From Escherichia coli (GTDB lineage Bacteria; Pseudomonadota; Gammaproteobacteria; Enterobacterales; Enterobacteriaceae): DNA of 64,000 bases. Both the position numbers and the translations under genes were made by a program. The DNA lies in the NCBI RefSeq assembly GCF_003991155.1, contig NZ_CP031295.1; one strand, 5' to 3'. Shown here in pieces: positions 2-63,391 of this stretch (position 1 is the stretch's first letter; each line of letters opens with the position of its first letter). The notes below the pieces were generated by a model. It was given only the letters and a program-made list of their open reading frames with translations, was not told the origin of the DNA and did no database searches.

Positions 2-328
2 GCGGACTACTTAATCCATGATTTGCAGACGGGTCACTTCGTGACAGTACTGCGTTTTATTTCGCCACTGATGGTTCGTCTTGGCGTACCTGAAAGGCGA
101 TTTTATCAACTGCTGGCAGCAGTGTTGAGTGATTACATGAAAAAACATCCACAAATGTCAGAGCGTTTTGCGCTTTTCTCACTTTTCAGGCCACAAATCA
201 TTCGCGTGGTGCTGAACCCGGTAAAACTGACCTGGCCTGATCTGGATGGCGGCAGCCGCATGCTGCCGAATTACCTTGAGGATCTGCAAAATCCGCTGTG
301 GCTGGTAACTCAGGAATATGAATCATGA
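2..328 (+). CDS. iucC: aerobactin synthase IucC, C-terminal fragment (5' end lies outside the window)
   Basis: ORF runs in from the window edge and its stop overlaps the iucD start by 4 bp; identity inferred from position upstream of iucD-iutA, not from a recognised motif. Confidence 0.6.
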   Translation, partial: ADYLIHDLQTGHFVTVLRFISPLMVRLGVPERRFYQLLAAVLSDYMKKHPQMSERFALFSLFRPQIIRVVLNPVKLTWPDLDGGSRMLPNYLEDLQNPLWLVTQEYES

Positions 329-1602
329 AAAAAAGTGTCGATTTTATTGGTGTAGGGACAGGGCCATTTAATCTCAGCATTGCTGCGTTGTCACATCAGA
401 TCGAAGAACTGGACTGTCTCTTCTTTGATGAACATCCTCATTTTTCCTGGCATCCGGGTATGCTGGTACCGGATTGTCATATGCAGACCGTCTTTCTGAA
501 AGATCTGGTCAGTGCTGTTGCACCTACAAATCCCTACAGTTTTGTTAACTATCTGGTGAAGCACAAAAAGTTCTATCGCTTCCTTACAAGCAGACTACGT
601 ACAGTATCCCGTGAAGAGTTTTCTGACTACCTCCGCTGGGCTGCTGAAGATATGAATAACCTGTATTTCAGTCATACCGTTGAAAACATTGATTTCGATA
701 AAAAACGTCGATTGTTTCTGGTGCAAACCAGCCAGGGAGAATATTTTGCCCGCAATATCTGCCTTGGTACAGGAAAACAACCTTATTTACCACCCTGTGT
801 GAAGCATATGACACAATCCTGTTTCCATGCCAGTGAAATGAATCTTCGTCGGCCGGACCTTAGTGGAAAACGGATAACCGTGGTTGGTGGAGGACAGAGT
901 GGTGCAGACCTGTTCCTTAATGCATTACGCGGGGAATGGGGAGAAGCGGCGGAAATAAACTGGGTCTCCCGGCGTAATAATTTTAACGCACTGGATGAGG
1001 CTGCTTTTGCTGATGAGTATTTTACACCTGAATATATTTCAGGCTTCTCCGGACTGGAGGAAGATATTCGCCATCAGTTACTGGATGAGCAGAAAATGAC
1101 ATCGGATGGCATCACTGCCGATTCTTTACTGACCATTTATCGTGAGTTGTACCACCGTTTTGAAGTTCTGAGAAAACCAAGAAATATCCGTCTGCTACCC
1201 AGCCGCTCGGTAACAACTCTGGAAAGTAGTGGTCCTGGCTGGAAGTTGCTGATGGAGCATCATCTGGATCAGGGCAGGGAGAGCCTGGAAAGTGATGTGG
1301 TGATTTTCGCCACAGGTTACCGTTCTGCGTTGCCACAAATACTTCCCTCACTGATGCCCCTGATCACCATGCACGATAAGAACACCTTTAAAGTGCGTGA
1401 TGACTTCACTCTGGAATGGAGTGGCCCGAAAGAGAACAACATCTTCGTGGTCAACGCCAGTATGCAAACCCATGGCATCGCCGAACCCCAGCTCAGCCTG
1501 ATGGCATGGAGATCTGCACGTATTCTTAATCGCGTAATGGGACGTGATTTATTCGATCTCAGTATGCCGCCCGCCCTGATTCAGTGGCGCAGCGGCACCT
1601 AG
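325..1602 (+). CDS. iucD: L-lysine N6-monooxygenase IucD (aerobactin biosynthesis)
   Basis: 425 aa ORF; N-terminal dinucleotide-binding motif GVGTGPFN and second GGGQSG motif typical of this flavin monooxygenase; immediately upstream of iutA. Confidence 0.9.
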   Translation: MKKSVDFIGVGTGPFNLSIAALSHQIEELDCLFFDEHPHFSWHPGMLVPDCHMQTVFLKDLVSAVAPTNPYSFVNYLVKHKKFYRFLTSRLRTVSREEFSDYLRWAAEDMNNLYFSHTVENIDFDKKRRLFLVQTSQGEYFARNICLGTGKQPYLPPCVKHMTQSCFHASEMNLRRPDLSGKRITVVGGGQSGADLFLNALRGEWGEAAEINWVSRRNNFNALDEAAFADEYFTPEYISGFSGLEEDIRHQLLDEQKMTSDGITADSLLTIYRELYHRFEVLRKPRNIRLLPSRSVTTLESSGPGWKLLMEHHLDQGRESLESDVVIFATGYRSALPQILPSLMPLITMHDKNTFKVRDDFTLEWSGPKENNIFVVNASMQTHGIAEPQLSLMAWRSARILNRVMGRDLFDLSMPPALIQWRSGT

Positions 1603-1683: not shown

Positions 1684-3885
1684 ATGATGATAAGCAAAAA
1701 GTATACGCTTTGGGCTCTCAACCCACTGCTTCTTACCATGATGGCGCCAGCAGTCGCTCAACAAACCGATGATGAAACGTTCGTGGTGTCTGCCAACCGC
1801 AGCAATCGCACCGTAGCGGAGATGGCGCAAACCACCTGGGTTATCGAAAACGCCGAACTGGAACAGCAGATTCAGGGCGGCAAAGAGCTTAAAGACGCAC
1901 TGGCTCAGCTGATCCCTGGCCTTGACGTCAGCAGCCGGAGCCGCACCAACTACGGTATGAATGTGCGTGGCCGCCCGCTGGTCGTGCTGGTTGACGGCGT
2001 GCGTCTCAACTCTTCACGTACCGACAGCCGACAACTGGACTCTATAGATCCTTTTAATATCGACCATATTGAAGTGATCTCCGGTGCGACGTCCCTGTAC
2101 GGCGGCGGCAGTACCGGTGGCCTGATCAACATCGTGACCAAAAAAGGCCAGCCGGAAACCATGATGGAGTTTGAGGCTGGCACCAAAAGTGGCTTTAGCA
2201 GCAGTAAAGATCACGATGAACGCATTGCCGGAGCTGTCTCCGGCGGAAATGAGCATATCTCCGGACGTCTTTCCGTGGCATATCAGAAATTTGGCGGCTG
2301 GTTTGACGGTAACGGCGATGCCACCTTGCTTGATAACACCCAGACCGGCCTGCAGTACTCCGATCGGCTGGACATCATGGGAACTGGTACGCTGAACATC
2401 GATGAATCCCGGCAGCTTCAGTTGATCACACAGTACTATAAAAGCCAGGGCGACGACGATTACGGGCTTAATCTCGGGAAAGGCTTCTCTGCCATCAGAG
2501 GGACCAGCACGCCATTCGTCAGTAACGGGCTGAATTCCGACCGTATTCCCGGCACTGAGCGGCATTTGATCAGCCTGCAGTACTCTGACAGCGCTTTTCT
2601 GGGACAGGAGCTGGTCGGTCAGGTTTACTACCGCGATGAGTCGTTGCGATTCTACCCGTTCCCGACGGTAAATGCGAACAAACAGGTGACGGCTTTCTCT
2701 TCGTCACAGCAGGACACCGACCAGTACGGCATGAAACTGACTCTGAACAGCAAACCGATGGACGGCTGGCAAATCACCTGGGGGCTGGATGCTGATCATG
2801 AGCGCTTTACCTCCAACCAGATGTTCTTCGACCTGGCTCAGGCAAGCGCTTCCGGAGGGCTGAACAACAAGAAGATTTACACCACCGGGCGCTATCCGTC
2901 GTATGACATCACCAACCTGGCGGTCTTCCTGCAATCAGGCTATGACATCAATAATCTCTTTACCCTCAACGGTGGCGTACGCTATCAGTACACTGAAAAC
3001 AAGATTGATGATTTCATCGGCTACGCGCAGCAACGGCAGATTGCCGCCGGGAAGGCTACATCCGCCGACGCCATTCCTGGCGGCTCAGTCGATTACGACA
3101 ACTTCCTGTTCAACGCCGGTCTGCTGATGCACATCACCGAACGCCAGCAGGCATGGCTCAACTTCTCCCAGGGCGTGGAGCTGCCGGACCCGGGTAAATA
3201 CTATGGTCGCGGCATCTATGGTGCTGCAGTGAACGGCCATCTTCCTCTAACAAAGAGTGTGAACGTCAGCGACAGCAAGCTGGAAGGCGTGAAAGTCGAT
3301 TCTTATGAGCTGGGCTGGCGCTTTACTGGCAATAATCTGCGTACCCAAATCGCGGCCTACTATTCGATTTCTGATAAGAGCGTGGTGGCGAATAAAGATC
3401 TGACCATCAGCGTGGTGGACGACAAACGCCGTATTTACGGCGTGGAAGGTGCGGTGGACTACCTGATTCCTGATACTGACTGGAGTACCGGAGTGAACTT
3501 CAACGTGCTGAAAACTGAGTCGAAAGTGAACGGTACCTGGCAGAAATACGATGTGAAGACAGCAAGCCCATCAAAAGCGACAGCCTACATTGGCTGGGCA
3601 CCGGACCCGTGGAGTCTGCGCGTGCAGAGCACCACCTCCTTTGACGTGAGCGACGCGCAGGGCTACAAGGTCGATGGCTATACCACCGTGGATCTGCTCG
3701 GCAGTTATCAGCTTCCGGTGGGTACACTCAGCTTCAGCATTGAAAACCTCTTCGACCGTGACTACACCACTGTCTGGGGGCAGCGTGCACCACTGTACTA
3801 CAGCCCGGGTTACGGCCCAGCGTCACTGTACGACTACAAAGGCAGGGGCCGAACCTTTGGTCTGAACTACTCTGTGCTGTTCTGA
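1684..3885 (+). CDS. iutA: ferric aerobactin outer-membrane receptor IutA (TonB-dependent)
   Basis: 733 aa ORF; signal peptide, TonB box ETFVVSA near N-terminus, C-terminal aromatic residue; RBS GGAGG upstream. Confidence 0.9.
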   Translation: MMISKKYTLWALNPLLLTMMAPAVAQQTDDETFVVSANRSNRTVAEMAQTTWVIENAELEQQIQGGKELKDALAQLIPGLDVSSRSRTNYGMNVRGRPLVVLVDGVRLNSSRTDSRQLDSIDPFNIDHIEVISGATSLYGGGSTGGLINIVTKKGQPETMMEFEAGTKSGFSSSKDHDERIAGAVSGGNEHISGRLSVAYQKFGGWFDGNGDATLLDNTQTGLQYSDRLDIMGTGTLNIDESRQLQLITQYYKSQGDDDYGLNLGKGFSAIRGTSTPFVSNGLNSDRIPGTERHLISLQYSDSAFLGQELVGQVYYRDESLRFYPFPTVNANKQVTAFSSSQQDTDQYGMKLTLNSKPMDGWQITWGLDADHERFTSNQMFFDLAQASASGGLNNKKIYTTGRYPSYDITNLAVFLQSGYDINNLFTLNGGVRYQYTENKIDDFIGYAQQRQIAAGKATSADAIPGGSVDYDNFLFNAGLLMHITERQQAWLNFSQGVELPDPGKYYGRGIYGAAVNGHLPLTKSVNVSDSKLEGVKVDSYELGWRFTGNNLRTQIAAYYSISDKSVVANKDLTISVVDDKRRIYGVEGAVDYLIPDTDWSTGVNFNVLKTESKVNGTWQKYDVKTASPSKATAYIGWAPDPWSLRVQSTTSFDVSDAQGYKVDGYTTVDLLGSYQLPVGTLSFSIENLFDRDYTTVWGQRAPLYYSPGYGPASLYDYKGRGRTFGLNYSVLF

Positions 3886-3957
3886 CCGGTATTCCTTTAC
3901 AACAAAGGTACGCTGATATCAACATGGCCGCTGACAGCCAAGTTGATATCATATAAT

Positions 3958-4018
3958 ACACGACATAATCTGTAGTCAGGGAGGATAGACTCTTTACTGA
4001 CTACAGATTATGTCGTGT
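3958..4018. repeat. perfect 22-bp inverted repeat (arms 3958-3979 and 3997-4018, 17-bp spacer) downstream of iutA
   Basis: read directly: acacgacataatctgtagtcag ... ctgactacagattatgtcgtgt; a second 10-bp inverted repeat tgatatcaac/gttgatatca lies at 3914-3951. Confidence 0.8.
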
Positions 4019-4369
4019 TCCGTGCTCATTTCCTCAAAAAAATACAAGAAAAGAATTAGTATTCTAACAAAAAGTGAAATAAATTGTATCAAACTCCCTC
4101 TTTTAATCCTGTTGAGTAAATCAGCTTTTGCAATAGGATTGAAAGAGTGTAAGTGGAATCTCTTCCGGATACTCGTTACCACCGTGGCTAGAATATCTAC
4201 GGCTGCGGGCCAGTAATAGATTAAGTGATAACAGCTGTCTGGAAATGTAGGGGCGTATCCACTAATCATAATCATTGTGAGATAAATATTACGGGGCATT
4301 TTATAATGAATAAAGGTGATGCTGCCAACTTACTGATTTAGTGTATGATGGTGTTTTTGAGGTGCTCCA

Positions 4370-4645
4370 GTGGCTTCTGTTTCTATCAGCTGTCCCTCCT
4401 GTTCAGCTACTGACGGGGTGGTGCGTAACGGCAAAAGCACCGCCGGACATCAGCGCTATCTCTGCTCTCACTGCCGTAAAACATGGCAACTGCAGTTCAC
4501 TTACACCGCTTCTCAACCCGGTACGCACCAGAAAATCATTGATATGGCCATGAATGGCGTTGGATGCCGGGCAACTGCACGCATTATGGGCGTTAGCCTC
4601 AACACGATTTTACGTCACTTAAAAAACTCAGGCCGCAGTCGGTAA
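4370..4645 (+). CDS. insA: IS1 InsA
   Basis: 91 aa [17 protein letters not shown]... with zinc-finger-like CxxC pairs; starts at nt 56 of the element as in IS1. Confidence 0.9.
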
Positions 4646-4689
4646 CCTCGCGCATACAGCCGGGCAGTGACGTCATCGTCTGCGCGGAA

Positions 4690-5067
4690 ATGGACGAACA
4701 GTGGGGATACGTCGGGGCTAAATCGCGCCAGCGCTGGCTGTTTTACGCGTATGACAGGCTCCGGAAGACGGTTGTTGCGCACGTATTCGGTGAACGCACT
4801 ATGGCGACGCTGGGGCGTCTTATGAGCCTGCTGTCACCCTTTGACGTGGTGATATGGATGACGGATGGCTGGCCGCTGTATGAATCCCGCCTGAAGGGAA
4901 AGCTGCACGTAATCAGCAAGCGATATACGCAGCGAATTGAGCGGCATAACCTGAATCTGAGGCAGCACCTGGCACGGCTGGGACGGAAGTCGCTGTCGTT
5001 CTCAAAATCGGTGGAGCTGCATGACAAAGTCATCGGGCATTATCTGAACATAAAACACTATCAATAA
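4690..5067 (+). CDS. insB: IS1 InsB (made as InsAB' transposase by -1 frameshift from insA)
   Basis: 125 aa ORF in the -1 frame relative to insA, ending just inside the right IR. Confidence 0.85.
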
Positions 5068-5264
5068 GTTGGAGTCATTACCGCCTTGACCATCAGATAG
5101 TTATTTTGGTGCTAGGGATACTGAGTGTGAACAGTTAGCGCGCGTCCTCGCCAGTTAGCTCGCTACGCTCGGTTACACGACGGCTACGAGTACTAGTGAT
5201 AATTATTGACTGAGGTATGTGCTCTTCCTGTTTCCTTTTTTGATGTGTTGCTCTCATTTTAAAC

Positions 5265-5357: not shown

Positions 5358-6533
5358 ATGTTCAGAATGAGACTCATGGAAACACTTAACCAGTGCATAA
5401 ACGCTGGTCATGAAATGACGAAGGCTATCGCCATTGCACAGTTTAATGATGACAGCCCGGAAGCGAGGAAAATCACCCGACGCTGGAGAATAGGTGAAGC
5501 AGCGGATTTAGTTGGAGTATCTTCTCAGGCTATCAGGGATGCCGAGAAAGCAGGCCGGCTACCGCACCCGGATATGGAAATACGAGGACGGGTTGAGCAA
5601 CGTGTTGGTTATACAATTGAACAAATTAATCATATGCGTGACGTGTTTGGTACGAGACTACGACGTGCTGAAGACGTATTTCCGCCGGTGATTGGAGTTG
5701 CTGCTCATAAAGGGGGCGTTTACAAAACCTCTGTTTCTGTTCATCTTGCTCAGGATCTGGCTCTGAAGGGATTACGTGTTCTGCTCGTGGAAGGTAACGA
5801 CCCCCAGGGAACAGCATCGATGTATCACGGCTGGGTGCCAGATCTTCATATTCATGCAGAGGATACTCTCCTTCCCTTCTATCTTGGGGAAAAGGACGAT
5901 GTCACTTATGCAATAAAGCCTACTTGCTGGCCTGGGCTTGACATTATTCCTTCCTGTTTGGCTCTGCACCGCATTGAAACTGAGCTAATGGGCAAATTTG
6001 ATGAAGGTAAATTGCCCACCGATCCACACCTGATGCTCCGACTGGCCATTGAAACCGTCGCTCATGACTATGATGTCATTGTCATTGACAGCGCGCCTAA
6101 CCTAGGTATCGGCACGATTAATGTTGTATGTGCTGCTGATGTGTTGATTGTCCCCACGCCTGCTGAGTTGTTCGACTACACTTCCGCTCTGCAGTTTTTC
6201 GATATGCTTCGTGATCTGCTCAAAAACGTAGATCTTAAAGGATTCGAGCCTGATGTACGTATTTTGCTTACCAAATACAGTAATAGTAATGGTTCTCAGT
6301 CCCCGTGGATGGAGGAGCAAATTCGGGACGCCTGGGGAAGCATGGTCCTAAAAAATGTTGTGCGTGAAACGGATGAAGTTGGTAAAGGTCAGATCCGGAT
6401 GAGAACTGTTTTTGAACAGGCTATTGATCAACGCTCTTCAACAGGTGCCTGGAGAAATGCCCTTTCTATTTGGGAACCTGTCTGCAATGAAATTTTCGAT
6501 CGTTTGATTAAACCACGCTGGGAGATTAGATAA
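5358..6533 (+). CDS. sopA: plasmid partition ATPase SopA (ParA family, F type)
   Basis: 391 aa ORF; deviant Walker A KGGVYKTS; matches F SopA as I remember it. Confidence 0.95.
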
Positions 6534-7504
6534 TGAAGCGTGCGCCTGTCATTCCAAAACATACGATTAAGACTCAACCGCTTGAAGATACTCCGTCATC
6601 GGCACCAGCTGCACCGATGGTGGATTCGTTAATTGCGCGCGTAGGAGCTATGGCTCGTGGCAATGCTATTACTTTGCCTGTATGTGGTAGGGACGTGAAA
6701 TTTACCCTTGAGGTGCTCCGGGGAGATAGTGTTGAGAAGACCTCTCGGGTATGGTCAGGTAATGAACGTGACCAGGAACTGCTTACCGAAGACGCCCTGG
6801 ATGATCTTATCCCTTCTTTTCTACTGACAGGTCAGCAGACACCAGCATTCGGTCGAAGAGTGTCTGGGGTCATAGAAATTGCCGATGGGAGCCGCCGTCG
6901 TAAAGCTGCTGCACTTACAGAAAGTGATTATCGAGTTCTGGTTGGTGAGCTGGATGATGAGCAGATGGCTGCATTGTCCAGATTGGGTAACGATTATAGG
7001 CCAACAAGTGCTTATGAACGTGGTCAGCGTTATGCAAGCCGATTGCAGAATGAATTTGCTGGAAATATTTCTGCGCTGGCTGATGCAGAAAATATTTCAC
7101 GTAAGATTATTACCCGCTGTATCAACACAGCTAAACTGCCTAAATCAGTTGTTGCTCTTTTTTCTCATCCCGGTGAACTATCTGCCCGGTCAGGTGATGC
7201 ACTTCAAAGAGCTTTTACAGATAAAGAAGAATTACTTAAGCAGCAGGCATCTAACCTTCACGAGCAGAAAAAAGCAGGAGTGATATTTGAAGCTGAAGAA
7301 GTCATCACTCTTTTAACGTCTGTGCTTAAAACGTCATCTGCCTCAAGAACTAGCTTAAGCTCACGACATCAGTTTGCTCCTGGAGCGACAGTGTTGTACA
7401 AGGGCGATAAAATGGTGTTAAACCTAGATAGATCTCGTATTCCAACTGAGTGTATAGAGAGAATTGAAGCCATTCTTAAGGAACTTGAAAAAGCGGCACT
7501 TTGA
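6533..7504 (+). CDS. sopB: plasmid partition protein SopB (ParB family, F type)
   Basis: 323 aa ORF overlapping the sopA stop; matches F SopB; followed by sopC repeats. Confidence 0.95.
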
Positions 7505-14021: not shown

Positions 14022-14531
14022 TTAATTGTTCTGCACGCTGTTAATTTCCGGAAGTGATTTCTTCGTGGCCGGAAGTCGGATACCTTTACTGCTTTTTATC
14101 CCAGTATAAATCCGGTAAACATCTGATGCGTAGGCAAGACGTCTCTGGTTCTGGCGTTCGGTTTTCCTGAATCCGGCATTGTATGCACCAACGGCCTCCC
14201 AGGTGACGCCCCATTTTTTAAATGCTATTGCCAGATAATAAGCACCGGTATAAATGTTCATGCAGGGATCTGTTGTCAGATGTTCTGGCTTAATTCCGTA
14301 GCGGGCCAGTTCGTTAAAATGCTGGGAATCTACCTGCATCAGTCCGCTGCCATATCCCGTTACCGGATTAATACCGATGGCATTAACCCGGTAACGGGAT
14401 TCTTGCCATGATATTGCTCTCAGTAAATCAGGATCTATTTTGTAATCCCGGCCTGCAAGATCAAAGCAATCAGTGGCCTGGCAGATCTCATTTATAAACA
14501 TCAGGCAGATGGCTAACATCCATTTTTTCAT
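14022..14531 (-). CDS. lytic transglycosylase (F orf169 / gene X type)
   Basis: 169 aa from [10 protein letters not shown]; signal peptide and Slt-like catalytic region (...[13 protein letters not shown]...GLMQV...); adjacent to oriT as in F. Confidence 0.85.
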
Positions 14532-14589
14532 TTTTCCACCTCTGGTGACTTTATCCGTAAATAATTTAACCCACTCCACAAAAAGGCTC

Positions 14590-14930
14590 AACAGGTTGGT
14601 GGTTCTCACCACCAAAAGCACCACACCCCACGCAAAAACAAGTTTTTGCTGATTTTTCTTTATAAATAGAGAGTTATGACAAATTAGTTCTTCTTGCTCT
14701 CTTTGTGATATTTAAAAAAGCGGTGTTGGCGCAGCTACAACACCGCGCCGACACCGCTTTTTAGGGGTGGTACTGACTATTTTCATAAAAAACATCATCT
14801 TATATTAGGGGTGCTGCTAGCGGCGCGGTGTGTTTTTTTACAGGACGCCCCTGGGGGCGCTGCTAGCGGTGCGTCCCTGTTTGCATTATGAATTTTAGTG
14901 TTTCGAAATTAACTTTATTTTATGTTCAAA
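14590..14930. other. oriT: origin of transfer oriT (F type), nick site and TraY/TraM/IHF binding region
   Basis: F-type nick motif as reverse complement (ggtggttctcaccaccaaaagcaccacaccccacgc), placing nic on the minus strand near 14622/14623; AT-rich repeats up to traM; nick strand and direction agree with the leading region at lower coordinates. Confidence 0.8.
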
Positions 14931-14944
14931 AAAGGTAATCTCTA

Positions 14945-15328
14945 ATGGCTAAGGTGAACCTGTATATCAGCAATGATGCCTATGAAAAAATAAATGCGAT
15001 TATTGAGAAGCGTCGACAGGAAGGGGCAAGGGAAAAAGATGTCAGTTTTTCAGCAACAGCTTCAATGCTTCTTGAACTGGGGCTTCGTGTACATGAGGCT
15101 CAGATGGAGCGTAAAGAGTCTGCATTTAATCAGACTGAGTTTAATAAATTGCTTCTTGAATGCGTTGTAAAAACACAATCATCAGTAGCGAAAATTTTGG
15201 GTATTGAGTCTCTCAGTCCTCATGTCTCCGGAAATCCAAAGTTTGAATATGCCAATATGGTTGAAGATATCAGGGAGAAGGTATCATCTGAGATGGAACG
15301 ATTTTTTCCAAAAAATGATGATGAATAA
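14945..15328 (+). CDS. traM: TraM, relaxosome accessory protein
   Basis: 127 aa, MAKVNLYISNDAYEKINAIIEKRRQEGAREKDVSFSATASMLLELGL..., matches F TraM. Confidence 0.95.
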   Translation: MAKVNLYISNDAYEKINAIIEKRRQEGAREKDVSFSATASMLLELGLRVHEAQMERKESAFNQTEFNKLLLECVVKTQSSVAKILGIESLSPHVSGNPKFEYANMVEDIREKVSSEMERFFPKNDDE

Positions 15329-15436
15329 AAGAAATTTGACTTCGTTCAAATATCAGAGTTTTTATGATTTAAAAAGGTGACAGTACGAAAGATAATTAGT
15401 ATATTAATTACGTGGTTAATGCCACGTTAAAATTTG

Positions 15437-50160: not shown

Positions 50161-50423
50161 TAACATATAAATAGCCTTTCCCGCAGATAACTCTCAGAAT
50201 TGTTATTTTCTCTGTGGACTCGCTGGATTTGCCCCTATATTTCCAGACATCTGTTATCACTTAACCCATTACAAGCCCGCTGCCGCAGATATTCCCGTGG
50301 CGAGCGATAACCCAGCGCACTATGCGGATGCCATTCGTTATAATGCTCGAACGCCTCTGCAAGGTTCTTTGCTGCCGTTAACCCGTCTGGTTTGGGCATG
50401 ATACTGATGTAGTCACGCTTTAT

Positions 50424-63060: not shown

Positions 63061-63391
63061 TATTGTTTTGATTTCGCTCTCAACAGAAGGGGGATGAAGC
63101 TCGACGGGCGTGCTACTAAATCACACTGCAGCAACACGCAGACGCACTTTTGACCATCAACAGCAACTCATACAAAAGGGCTTTGAGAAAGGTATTCAAC
63201 TTGCAAGACAGGAGAGTCATTCAGAAGGATTCTGATTTTAGTTACGACCAGTGCAATGCTGAGCCTTATGTATCAGCGCTCGCCGCAGCCATGTAACCGA
63301 GCGTAGCGAGCGAACTGGCGAGGAAGCGAAGAGGAACCGTTCCGGCAGATAGCTCTTACGCTCAGCACAAGAAGAGTTTTCCATCCTCTGT

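Follow-up and report, generated by a model that had tools for sequence, protein, structure and literature searches.

Two adjacent hairpins downstream of iutA: a 3′ structure of the aerobactin operon and a putative orphan copy of the RepFIB E/F iteron pair

Between iutA, the last gene of the aerobactin operon, and a copy of IS1 in Escherichia coli lie two inverted repeats, the second of which is a perfect palindrome with 22-bp arms. To which element does such a conspicuous structure belong, and may it still serve a function? The initial annotation, made from the letters alone, had offered a relic transposon end, a protein-binding operator or an mRNA-stabilising structure at the end of the aerobactin transcript, and a literature search returned no relevant description of a hairpin downstream of iutA. 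We examined the repeats and their surroundings within the window (the whole stretch of DNA analysed, 64,000 nucleotides) and in public genomes. The reading that we consider likely is that two unrelated hairpins lie side by side: the first is the operon's own, while the second would be an orphan copy of the E/F iteron pair of RepFIB replicons, a putative scar of a FIB replicon and a predicted site for its Rep protein.

Layout of the iutA-IS1 spacer

The features of the locus are as follows (window coordinates, strand where there is one, and in brackets the basis of each assignment).

1684-3885, plus strand: iutA (ferric aerobactin receptor), last gene of the aerobactin operon (open reading frame; identical sequence annotated as iutA in NZ_CP029748.1, offset 115)
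3914-3951, plus strand: hairpin 1, 15-bp stem with one mismatch and 8-nt loop; iutA 3′ hairpin at the terminator position, without U-tract (repeat search, folding, conservation)
3952-3962: transition from the aerobactin module to the iteron-pair DNA (limits of BLAST homology)
3958-4018: hairpin 2, perfect 22-bp inverted repeat with 17-nt spacer; orphan RepFIB E/F homologue (repeat search; match to DNA 3′ of the rep stop)
3963-3979, plus strand: iteron-like core of the left arm, E-like, ACATAATCTGTAGTCAG (16/17 against iteron E; 21.9 bits)
3997-4013, minus strand: iteron-like core of the right arm, F-like, the same 17-mer (similarity search and matrix scan)
4019-4164: AT-rich DNA, 35% GC, with a third hairpin at 4098-4147 (no match outside iutA-linked copies; no Pfam match for its ORFs)
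4165-4262 (approximate), plus strand: right-end remnant of an IS2-like (IS3-family) element, with the last ~19 orfB codons and the terminal inverted repeat ending ...ATCCA (80-90% identity to IS2/IS3-family 3′ ends)
4263-4314: short spacer before IS1 (E. coli ColV and Klebsiella plasmids are homologous up to 4272)
4315-5082, plus strand: IS1, 768 bp, without 9-bp target duplication (inspection of flanks)

Both repeats described in the initial annotation are real and lie where it had placed them; it had called them nested, but they are in fact adjacent (tandem) and of different origins. The arms of hairpin 2, ACACGACATAATCTGTAGTCAG (3958-3979) and CTGACTACAGATTATGTCGTGT (3997-4018), are 100% complementary, with 17 nt between them. 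Hairpin 1 has a perfect outer part of 10 nt (tgatatcaac, 3914-3923, and gttgatatca, 3942-3951) and reaches 15 nt with one mismatch (3914-3928 and 3937-3951), leaving an 8-nt loop. Folded as RNA, hairpin 2 yields -41.0 kcal/mol on the plus strand (z -11.4, equalled by none of 200 shuffles) and -37.8 kcal/mol on the minus strand, and hairpin 1 yields -19.0 kcal/mol (z -5.0); the entire stretch 3880-4050 has a folding z of -9 on either strand. Both inverted repeats are far above chance expectation, and chance is excluded.

No T-tract follows either hairpin and a terminator scan was empty at 3900-4030, in agreement with the earlier remark that the long hairpin lacks a U-tract. Hairpin 2, which starts 73 nt past the iutA stop on the sense strand, has arms of 41% GC with the 3′ tails UCCGUGCUCA (plus strand) and AUUAUAUGAU (minus strand), and the combination of a GC-rich stem and a following U-tract that marks an intrinsic terminator is absent from it. 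A scan of 3600-4321 found no sigma-70 promoter with 16-18-nt spacing; a promoter reading was rejected, the only candidates seen by eye being spaced by 15 nt (CTGACA-15-TATAAT and TTGATA-15-CATAAT). An Rfam scan of 3700-4400 at E ≤ 10 returned only generic long-hairpin microRNA/sRNA noise, far under the gathering scores. Upstream in the operon, iucD (window 325-1602) is an intact ORF of 425 aa; in two RefSeq records iucD is annotated as frameshifted (L001, 440-1773; L004, 1-1159).

Hairpin 1 is conserved at the 3′ end of iutA

Most of 80 iutA homologues from Enterobacterales, Pseudomonas and Vibrio have a stem-loop 10-25 nt past the stop codon. It is usually GC-rich, and in some loci, e.g. those of Buttiauxella, Trabulsiella and Vibrio, a T-run is added. 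The E. coli-type hairpin 1 resembles these terminators in position, but is AT-richer and has no T-run. This likeness to the Rho-independent terminators of iutA homologues concerns hairpin 1 and not hairpin 2: a conserved position and structure 3′ of iutA is found for the former, while the latter is absent from all 80 loci.

Hairpin 1 is also kept in chromosomal aerobactin loci (L004, L005) and in a plasmid locus of E. fergusonii (L098), with 3 compensatory pair changes. The chromosomal form reads GCTGTAAACAACATGG...CCATGTTGTTTACAGC and the plasmid form TGATATCAACATGGC...GCCAAGTTGATATCA, the stem being retained through three double changes. Across four distinct sequences, 95% of the cells of the stem alignment are paired, compared with 27-48% in every slid control. 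Judging by this covariation, hairpin 1 belongs to the aerobactin operon itself and occupies the terminator position; we call it non-canonical because the U-tract is missing. The earlier suggestion of an mRNA-stabilising or terminating structure thus fits hairpin 1, conserved, covarying and at the terminator position, better than hairpin 2, for which it had been made.

In many Enterobacterales (L008-L035, at ~2265-2290 of each) a near-identical GC-rich terminator stem, CTTGCCCGGC...GCCGGGCAAG, directly follows the iutA stop; at the E. coli-type locus the AT-richer hairpin without T-run stands in its place. In two metagenome-assembled genomes labelled Collinsella/Bacillota (L018, L066), an E. 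coli-type iutA has the hairpin-1 flank of chromosomal loci; the contigs concerned probably come from Enterobacteriaceae and were mis-binned.

The aerobactin module and its flank in other genomes

Comparison of the iutA 3′ flank across aerobactin loci, recommended in the initial annotation, separated the two hairpins. BLAST matches to chromosomal aerobactin loci (96% and 84% iutA types) end at ~3945, and the match to the E. fergusonii plasmid locus L098 (86%) ends at 3951. Since homology to both stops there, the aerobactin module proper, as delimited by alignment, ends right after hairpin 1, and hairpin 2 is different DNA. A possible weak continuation of the aerobactin flank (TATAATAyAC) extends to ~3961, and homology to RepFIB E/F begins at 3963. 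Neither hairpin 2 nor anything like it was present in the 80 diverse iutA loci, in E. coli chromosomal aerobactin loci or in the E. fergusonii plasmid. We rejected homology between the chromosomal iutA flank and the DNA to the right of hairpin 2, as the MAFFT columns that would suggest it are a forced alignment and BLAST does not support them.

The spacer 3886-4320 is matched in about 1400-1500 plasmids of E. coli (ColV), Salmonella and Klebsiella (virulence plasmids) and in 953 of 5426 complete E. coli genomes, where it occupies 977 places (960 on plasmids and 17 on the chromosome; median 1 place per genome). In the listed matching records it is unannotated. The low copy number per genome, the plasmid location of 960 of the 977 places and the lack of Rfam matches above noise led us to reject a chromosomal repeat of the REP, BIME or ERIC kind.

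K. pneumoniae virulence plasmids match 3886-4272 at 98% identity, and homology breaks at 4272. The right arm of hairpin 2 in the Klebsiella copy has a 6-nt tandem duplication and a G>A change, so that two of the three differences from E. coli over 387 nt fall within this 22-nt arm (by an arithmetic estimate, ~1% chance if differences were uniform). These changes fit relaxed constraint or palindrome-prone slippage. In a different Klebsiella plasmid, the IncFIB rep homologue that we examined is 58% identical and is accompanied by unrelated iterons (ATTGACTG...). Taken together, the arm changes and the unrelated iterons argue against strong selection for a perfect palindrome. Conservation within E. 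coli is uninformative in this respect because E. coli copies of the whole spacer are at least 99% identical.

Hairpin 2 resembles the RepFIB E/F iteron pair

A distant BLAST search aligned window 3963-4011 with positions 3001-3049 of L003 at 87.8% identity, and this segment of L003 lies directly 3′ of the stop codon of a RepB-family rep gene. The best match to a RepFIB allele was 88.2% over 51 nt (E 2e-8, 7.3 Gb searched); overall, hairpin 2 with its spacer aligns with RepFIB E/F over 49-51 nt at 87.8-88.2% identity (E 2e-8 to 2e-7 in the 7.3 Gb), and against the window alone the same homology has an E-value of 1.7e-11. More than 2000 PLSDB records match hairpin 2 at 80-90%, typically at positions 979-1027 of records that start at the 978-nt rep gene. 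A further resemblance to L003 was noted elsewhere in the window: 63274-63328 and 5140-5194 (minus strand) resemble L003 1512-1566, a GC-rich segment ~460-510 bp upstream of the RepFIB rep, at 82% and 73% over 55 nt.

The E/F iterons of RepFIB (IncFIB, P307/F/pO157/ColV 'REPI') share with hairpin 2 their head-to-head cores, the 17-nt spacing and a partly conserved spacer (...GACTCTTTA). A direct comparison is possible with pCREC-544_1, an IncFIB/IncFIC plasmid of ColV type whose copy of the iutA spacer is 100% identical to ours and in which ~18 kb separate the orphan from the RepFIB rep gene (14436-15413) and the native E/F:

Orphan pair (window): left arm ACACG-ACATAATCTGTAGTCAG; spacer GGAGGATAGACTCTTTA (17 nt); right arm CTGACTACAGATTATGT-CGTGT
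Native pair (RepFIB of the plasmid with identical spacer): left arm ACATAAACTGTAGTCAG; spacer TGAAGAGCGCTCCTTTA (17 nt); right arm CTGACTACAGCTTATAT

The orphan arm ACATAATCTGTAGTCAG agrees with iteron E ACATAAACTGTAGTCAG at 16 of 17 positions; the sole mismatch, a T at position 7, is what Salmonella RepFIB naturally has in its iteron E, ACATAATCTGTAGTGAG. Both arms fit the RepFIB iteron consensus A[CT]ATAA[AG]CTGTAGT[CG]AG. Between CAG and CTG there are always 17 nt, be it in the window, in the Klebsiella copy or in the E. coli RepFIB alleles, of which seven were compared; the orphan and the E. coli alleles also share the spacer end ...CTTTA.

We then scored the arms with a weight matrix built from the ten iterons of the RepFIB of the same spacer-identical plasmid. 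Each orphan arm reached 21.9 bits, equal to or above 6 of the 10 genuine iterons, which scored 12.8-24.4 bits when left out in turn. The two arms are the joint top two of 127,968 sites in the 64-kb window, with the next site at 13.8 bits; no further site in the window lay within 3 mismatches or above 13.8 bits, and a RepFIB rep is absent from the 64 kb. The orphan thus differs from a native pair in its setting. It lies away from rep, without iterons G-K, at the 3′ end of iutA and ~18 kb from the real RepFIB of the plasmid; where a replicon has rep immediately before the pair and iterons G-K behind it, here iutA and hairpin 1 precede and non-homologous AT-rich DNA follows. By homology, hairpin 2 is a relative of the inverted E/F iterons of RepFIB that has come away from any replicon and is now joined to the aerobactin module at its 3′ end. 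We term it an orphan copy because there is no rep and there are no other iterons nearby.

A second difference is the symmetry. The 22-nt orphan arms are perfectly symmetric, running 5 nt past the iteron core (ACACG/CGTGT), while most native alleles have one or two mismatches between their E and F arms. Perfect pairs do occur in the family: the E. coli RepFIB allele L088 has a perfect 17-nt inverted pair, and a Pantoea relative (L096, ~1575-1615) carries, ~55 nt after rep, two inverted iterons that match perfectly over 18 nt around a 4-nt loop. Because L088 and Pantoea also carry perfect pairs, inverted and even perfect iteron pairs 3′ of rep are, on this comparison, a trait of the RepFIB Rep family. 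Part of the extension (ACAC) may derive from the iutA flank; templated correction of a quasi-palindrome is a speculative source of the 5-nt extension.

A donor replicon with the exact orphan iteron or the 22-nt arms was found neither in PLSDB nor in complete E. coli genomes or metagenomes. When PLSDB was searched with 3946-4200 by distant BLAST, no match was closer than 88%, and a metagenome scan with HACATAATCTGTAGTCAG, designed to exclude the orphan, gave 31 matches, all isolated chance matches without an inverted partner or iteron array. A phage collection contained no match to hairpin 2. In 72,556 plasmids and 5,426 E. coli genomes the hairpin occurs in two contexts only, after iutA or, as E/F, after rep.

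The initial annotation had envisaged that the same hairpin might be found broadly as a characterised terminator or a REP-like element. It is essentially widespread and characterised, as RepFIB iterons and not as a REP-like repeat. Among the identities first offered, a protein-binding operator comes closest, hairpin 2 being a homologue of the Rep-binding E/F sites, and the first interpretation as a whole is only partly borne out.

DNA to the right of hairpin 2

The 146 bp that follow hairpin 2 have 35% GC, and a PLSDB search with 4019-4190 gave no match outside iutA-linked copies. A third hairpin at 4098-4147, with 17-nt arms that are 88% complementary, is kept in the Klebsiella copy. It folds at -22.6 kcal/mol (z -6.3) on the plus strand and at -13.2 kcal/mol (z -1.9) on the minus strand, a strand preference as G-U pairing in RNA would predict; no U-tract follows, and there is no Rfam match over noise.

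Window 4191-4263 is 80-90% identical to IS2/IS3-family 3′ ends, and the translation GYSLPPWLEYLRLRASNRLSDNSCLEM* aligned with the C-terminus of IS2-like orfB. This genuine IS relic (~4165-4262), located further to the right than the hairpin and missed initially, is common to E. coli ColV and Klebsiella virulence plasmids, and the window contains a related fragment at 50224-50294 (minus strand). A 38-nt piece immediately left of IS1 (4277-4314) recurs at 100% identity in plasmids without the remainder of the iutA spacer and may be a common IS1-adjacent fragment. No 9-bp target duplication surrounds IS1 itself (...gaataaa to its left, gccttgacc... to its right), so the element marks a rearrangement junction and not a simple insertion; sopA and sopB directly follow it (5358-7504).

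Alternative explanations for hairpin 2

The alternative that survives best, and which we regard as quite possible though short of an even chance, holds that hairpin 2 is an inert scar, a fossil of recombination with a FIB-like replicon that has no meaningful Rep occupancy and no relevant effect on the transcript. Just 61 bp remain, amid IS debris; in the Klebsiella lineage one arm tolerates both the duplication and the altered base, and unrelated iterons accompany the IncFIB rep homologue that we examined from Klebsiella; recent common ancestry of the whole spacer explains its conservation in E. coli. However, the geometry is intact, the arms score no lower than 6 of the 10 genuine plasmid iterons, and a cognate Rep is encoded on the same plasmid in pCREC-544_1. 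Moreover, single isolated iterons of RK2 measurably lower copy number, with a shift of about two-fold (PMC6961859).

At the opposite end, the pair might be a working distal control site: Rep dimers on the orphan would pair either with iterons of the origin, ~18 kb distant, or with iterons on an incoming IncFIB plasmid, and the perfect 22-bp symmetry would be maintained and not accidental. We hold this to be rather unlikely. If true, the aerobactin module would carry its own piece of FIB copy-number and incompatibility control, and bound Rep might block read-through from the Fur-regulated aerobactin operon, tying iron status to Rep availability.

A similarly doubtful alternative assigns hairpin 2 a role in the iucABCD-iutA transcript, as a terminator, read-through barrier or 3′ stabiliser, with its likeness to iterons being incidental. 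Its place on the sense strand 73 nt past the iutA stop and its folding energy of -41 kcal/mol speak for such a role, and the stem-loop of a pMT1-type RepFIB relative (L094, 1075-1125), which surrounds the first downstream iterons after repA and is followed by a T-run, suggests that such sites may double as terminators. Yet the U-tract is missing, the terminator position is occupied by the conserved and covarying hairpin 1, chromosomal and other aerobactin loci manage without hairpin 2, and the palindrome folds equally well on both strands, as symmetry at the DNA level predicts. With hairpin 1 in that position and hairpin 2 lacking from many loci, termination or stabilisation by hairpin 2 could be no more than a side effect.

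Terminal inverted repeats of a relic transposon, IS or MITE-like element, the first of the earlier suggestions, are very improbable. The IS2-like end (~4165-4262) and IS1 (4315) are close by, but the arms are unlike the ends of either and have no other copies in the 64-kb window, no target-site duplication (direct repeat) surrounds hairpin 2, its contexts in the plasmid and E. coli collections are two only, and phages gave no match; an IS or MITE end was rejected on these grounds. Hardly credible at all is a coding role within the 101-aa (3994-4299, minus strand) or the 68-aa ORF (4010-4216, plus strand): both ORFs exist, but neither has a Pfam match or is conserved as an ORF, nothing is annotated there in the listed matching records, the former crosses the IS2-like terminal repeat and starts beyond the break in E. 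coli/Klebsiella homology at 4272, and the latter begins inside the stem of hairpin 2. The ORFs had been called implausible from the start, and rightly so.

A putative scar of a FIB-like replicon

We return to the reading that we favour, in which hairpin 1 is the operon's own structure and hairpin 2 an orphan E/F pair that Rep may still bind. The native E/F pair sits immediately 3′ of the rep stop and opens the downstream copy-control iteron block, E to K. Hairpin 2 would then be a scar, left where the aerobactin locus was long ago joined to a FIB-like replicon and subsequently shortened by an IS2-like insertion with deletion and by IS1; palindrome bases are plausible breakpoints. On sequence comparison, the iteron pair was already in place behind the aerobactin module before ColV and Klebsiella virulence plasmids diverged. 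Since both flanks of the 61-bp palindrome are non-homologous to RepFIB, a scar with one breakpoint needs a second event. The relic model by itself also leaves the 5-nt symmetry beyond the core unaccounted for.

Inverted iteron-like half-sites are the expected substrate of a dimeric initiator, as in the F repE operator, pSC101 IR-2, the R6K pir operator and pPS10. Those operators overlap the rep promoter and autoregulate rep, while the orphan has neither rep nor a recognisable regulated gene beside it. A RepA-repressible promoter ('EFp') within E/F has reportedly been described in work on RepA and its repeats, although a text search did not confirm it. Closer parallels are Rep-binding repeats outside a minimal origin that act negatively by titration or handcuffing, namely iterons 1 and 10 of RK2 oriV, F incC and P1 incA; F incC and P1 incA are known as negative distal iteron sites. 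These lie inside or beside their own replicon and have been tested, whereas the orphan pair is much further away and is known from its sequence.

For RepFIB itself, the pair after rep is labelled E and F, the first of the downstream iterons E-K, in Suppl. Fig. S2 of PMC11983097, and the primers used there for 'downstream iterons' begin at ACATAAACTGTAGTCAG. According to the same study, a FIB replicon is displaced by EFGHIJ on its own and not by the upstream origin block, Rep-mediated handcuffing is the proposed mechanism, and plasmid-curing cassettes owe their activity to FIB downstream iterons (PMC11983097).

Given the resemblance of the arms to genuine iterons, the orphan pair is probably still able to bind RepFIB Rep in ColV plasmids, with binding probably as dimers on the inverted pair. 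Once bound, it would be at most a minor extra site for titration or handcuffing. An iutA transcript that reads through would inevitably form the -41 kcal/mol stem, which would block 3′ exonucleases.

Implications

Judged by homology, hairpin 2 is an un-annotated orphan member of a known and characterised family, the RepFIB iterons, and not a new kind of element; its iteron identity would account for a conspicuous hairpin without invoking anything new. For mapping of transcript ends, the operon's real 3′ hairpin (hairpin 1) can now be told apart from the foreign hairpin 2. The linkage of aerobactin with REPI/RepFIB in ColV plasmids has long been known, and a FIB-like replicon that once abutted the module fits this linkage. 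Hairpin 2 may serve as a datable marker of this former contact, in the aerobactin module common to ColV plasmids and the virulence plasmids of K. pneumoniae. In present-day plasmids, an extra high-scoring iteron pair could slightly change FIB copy control, incompatibility or the efficiency of curing.
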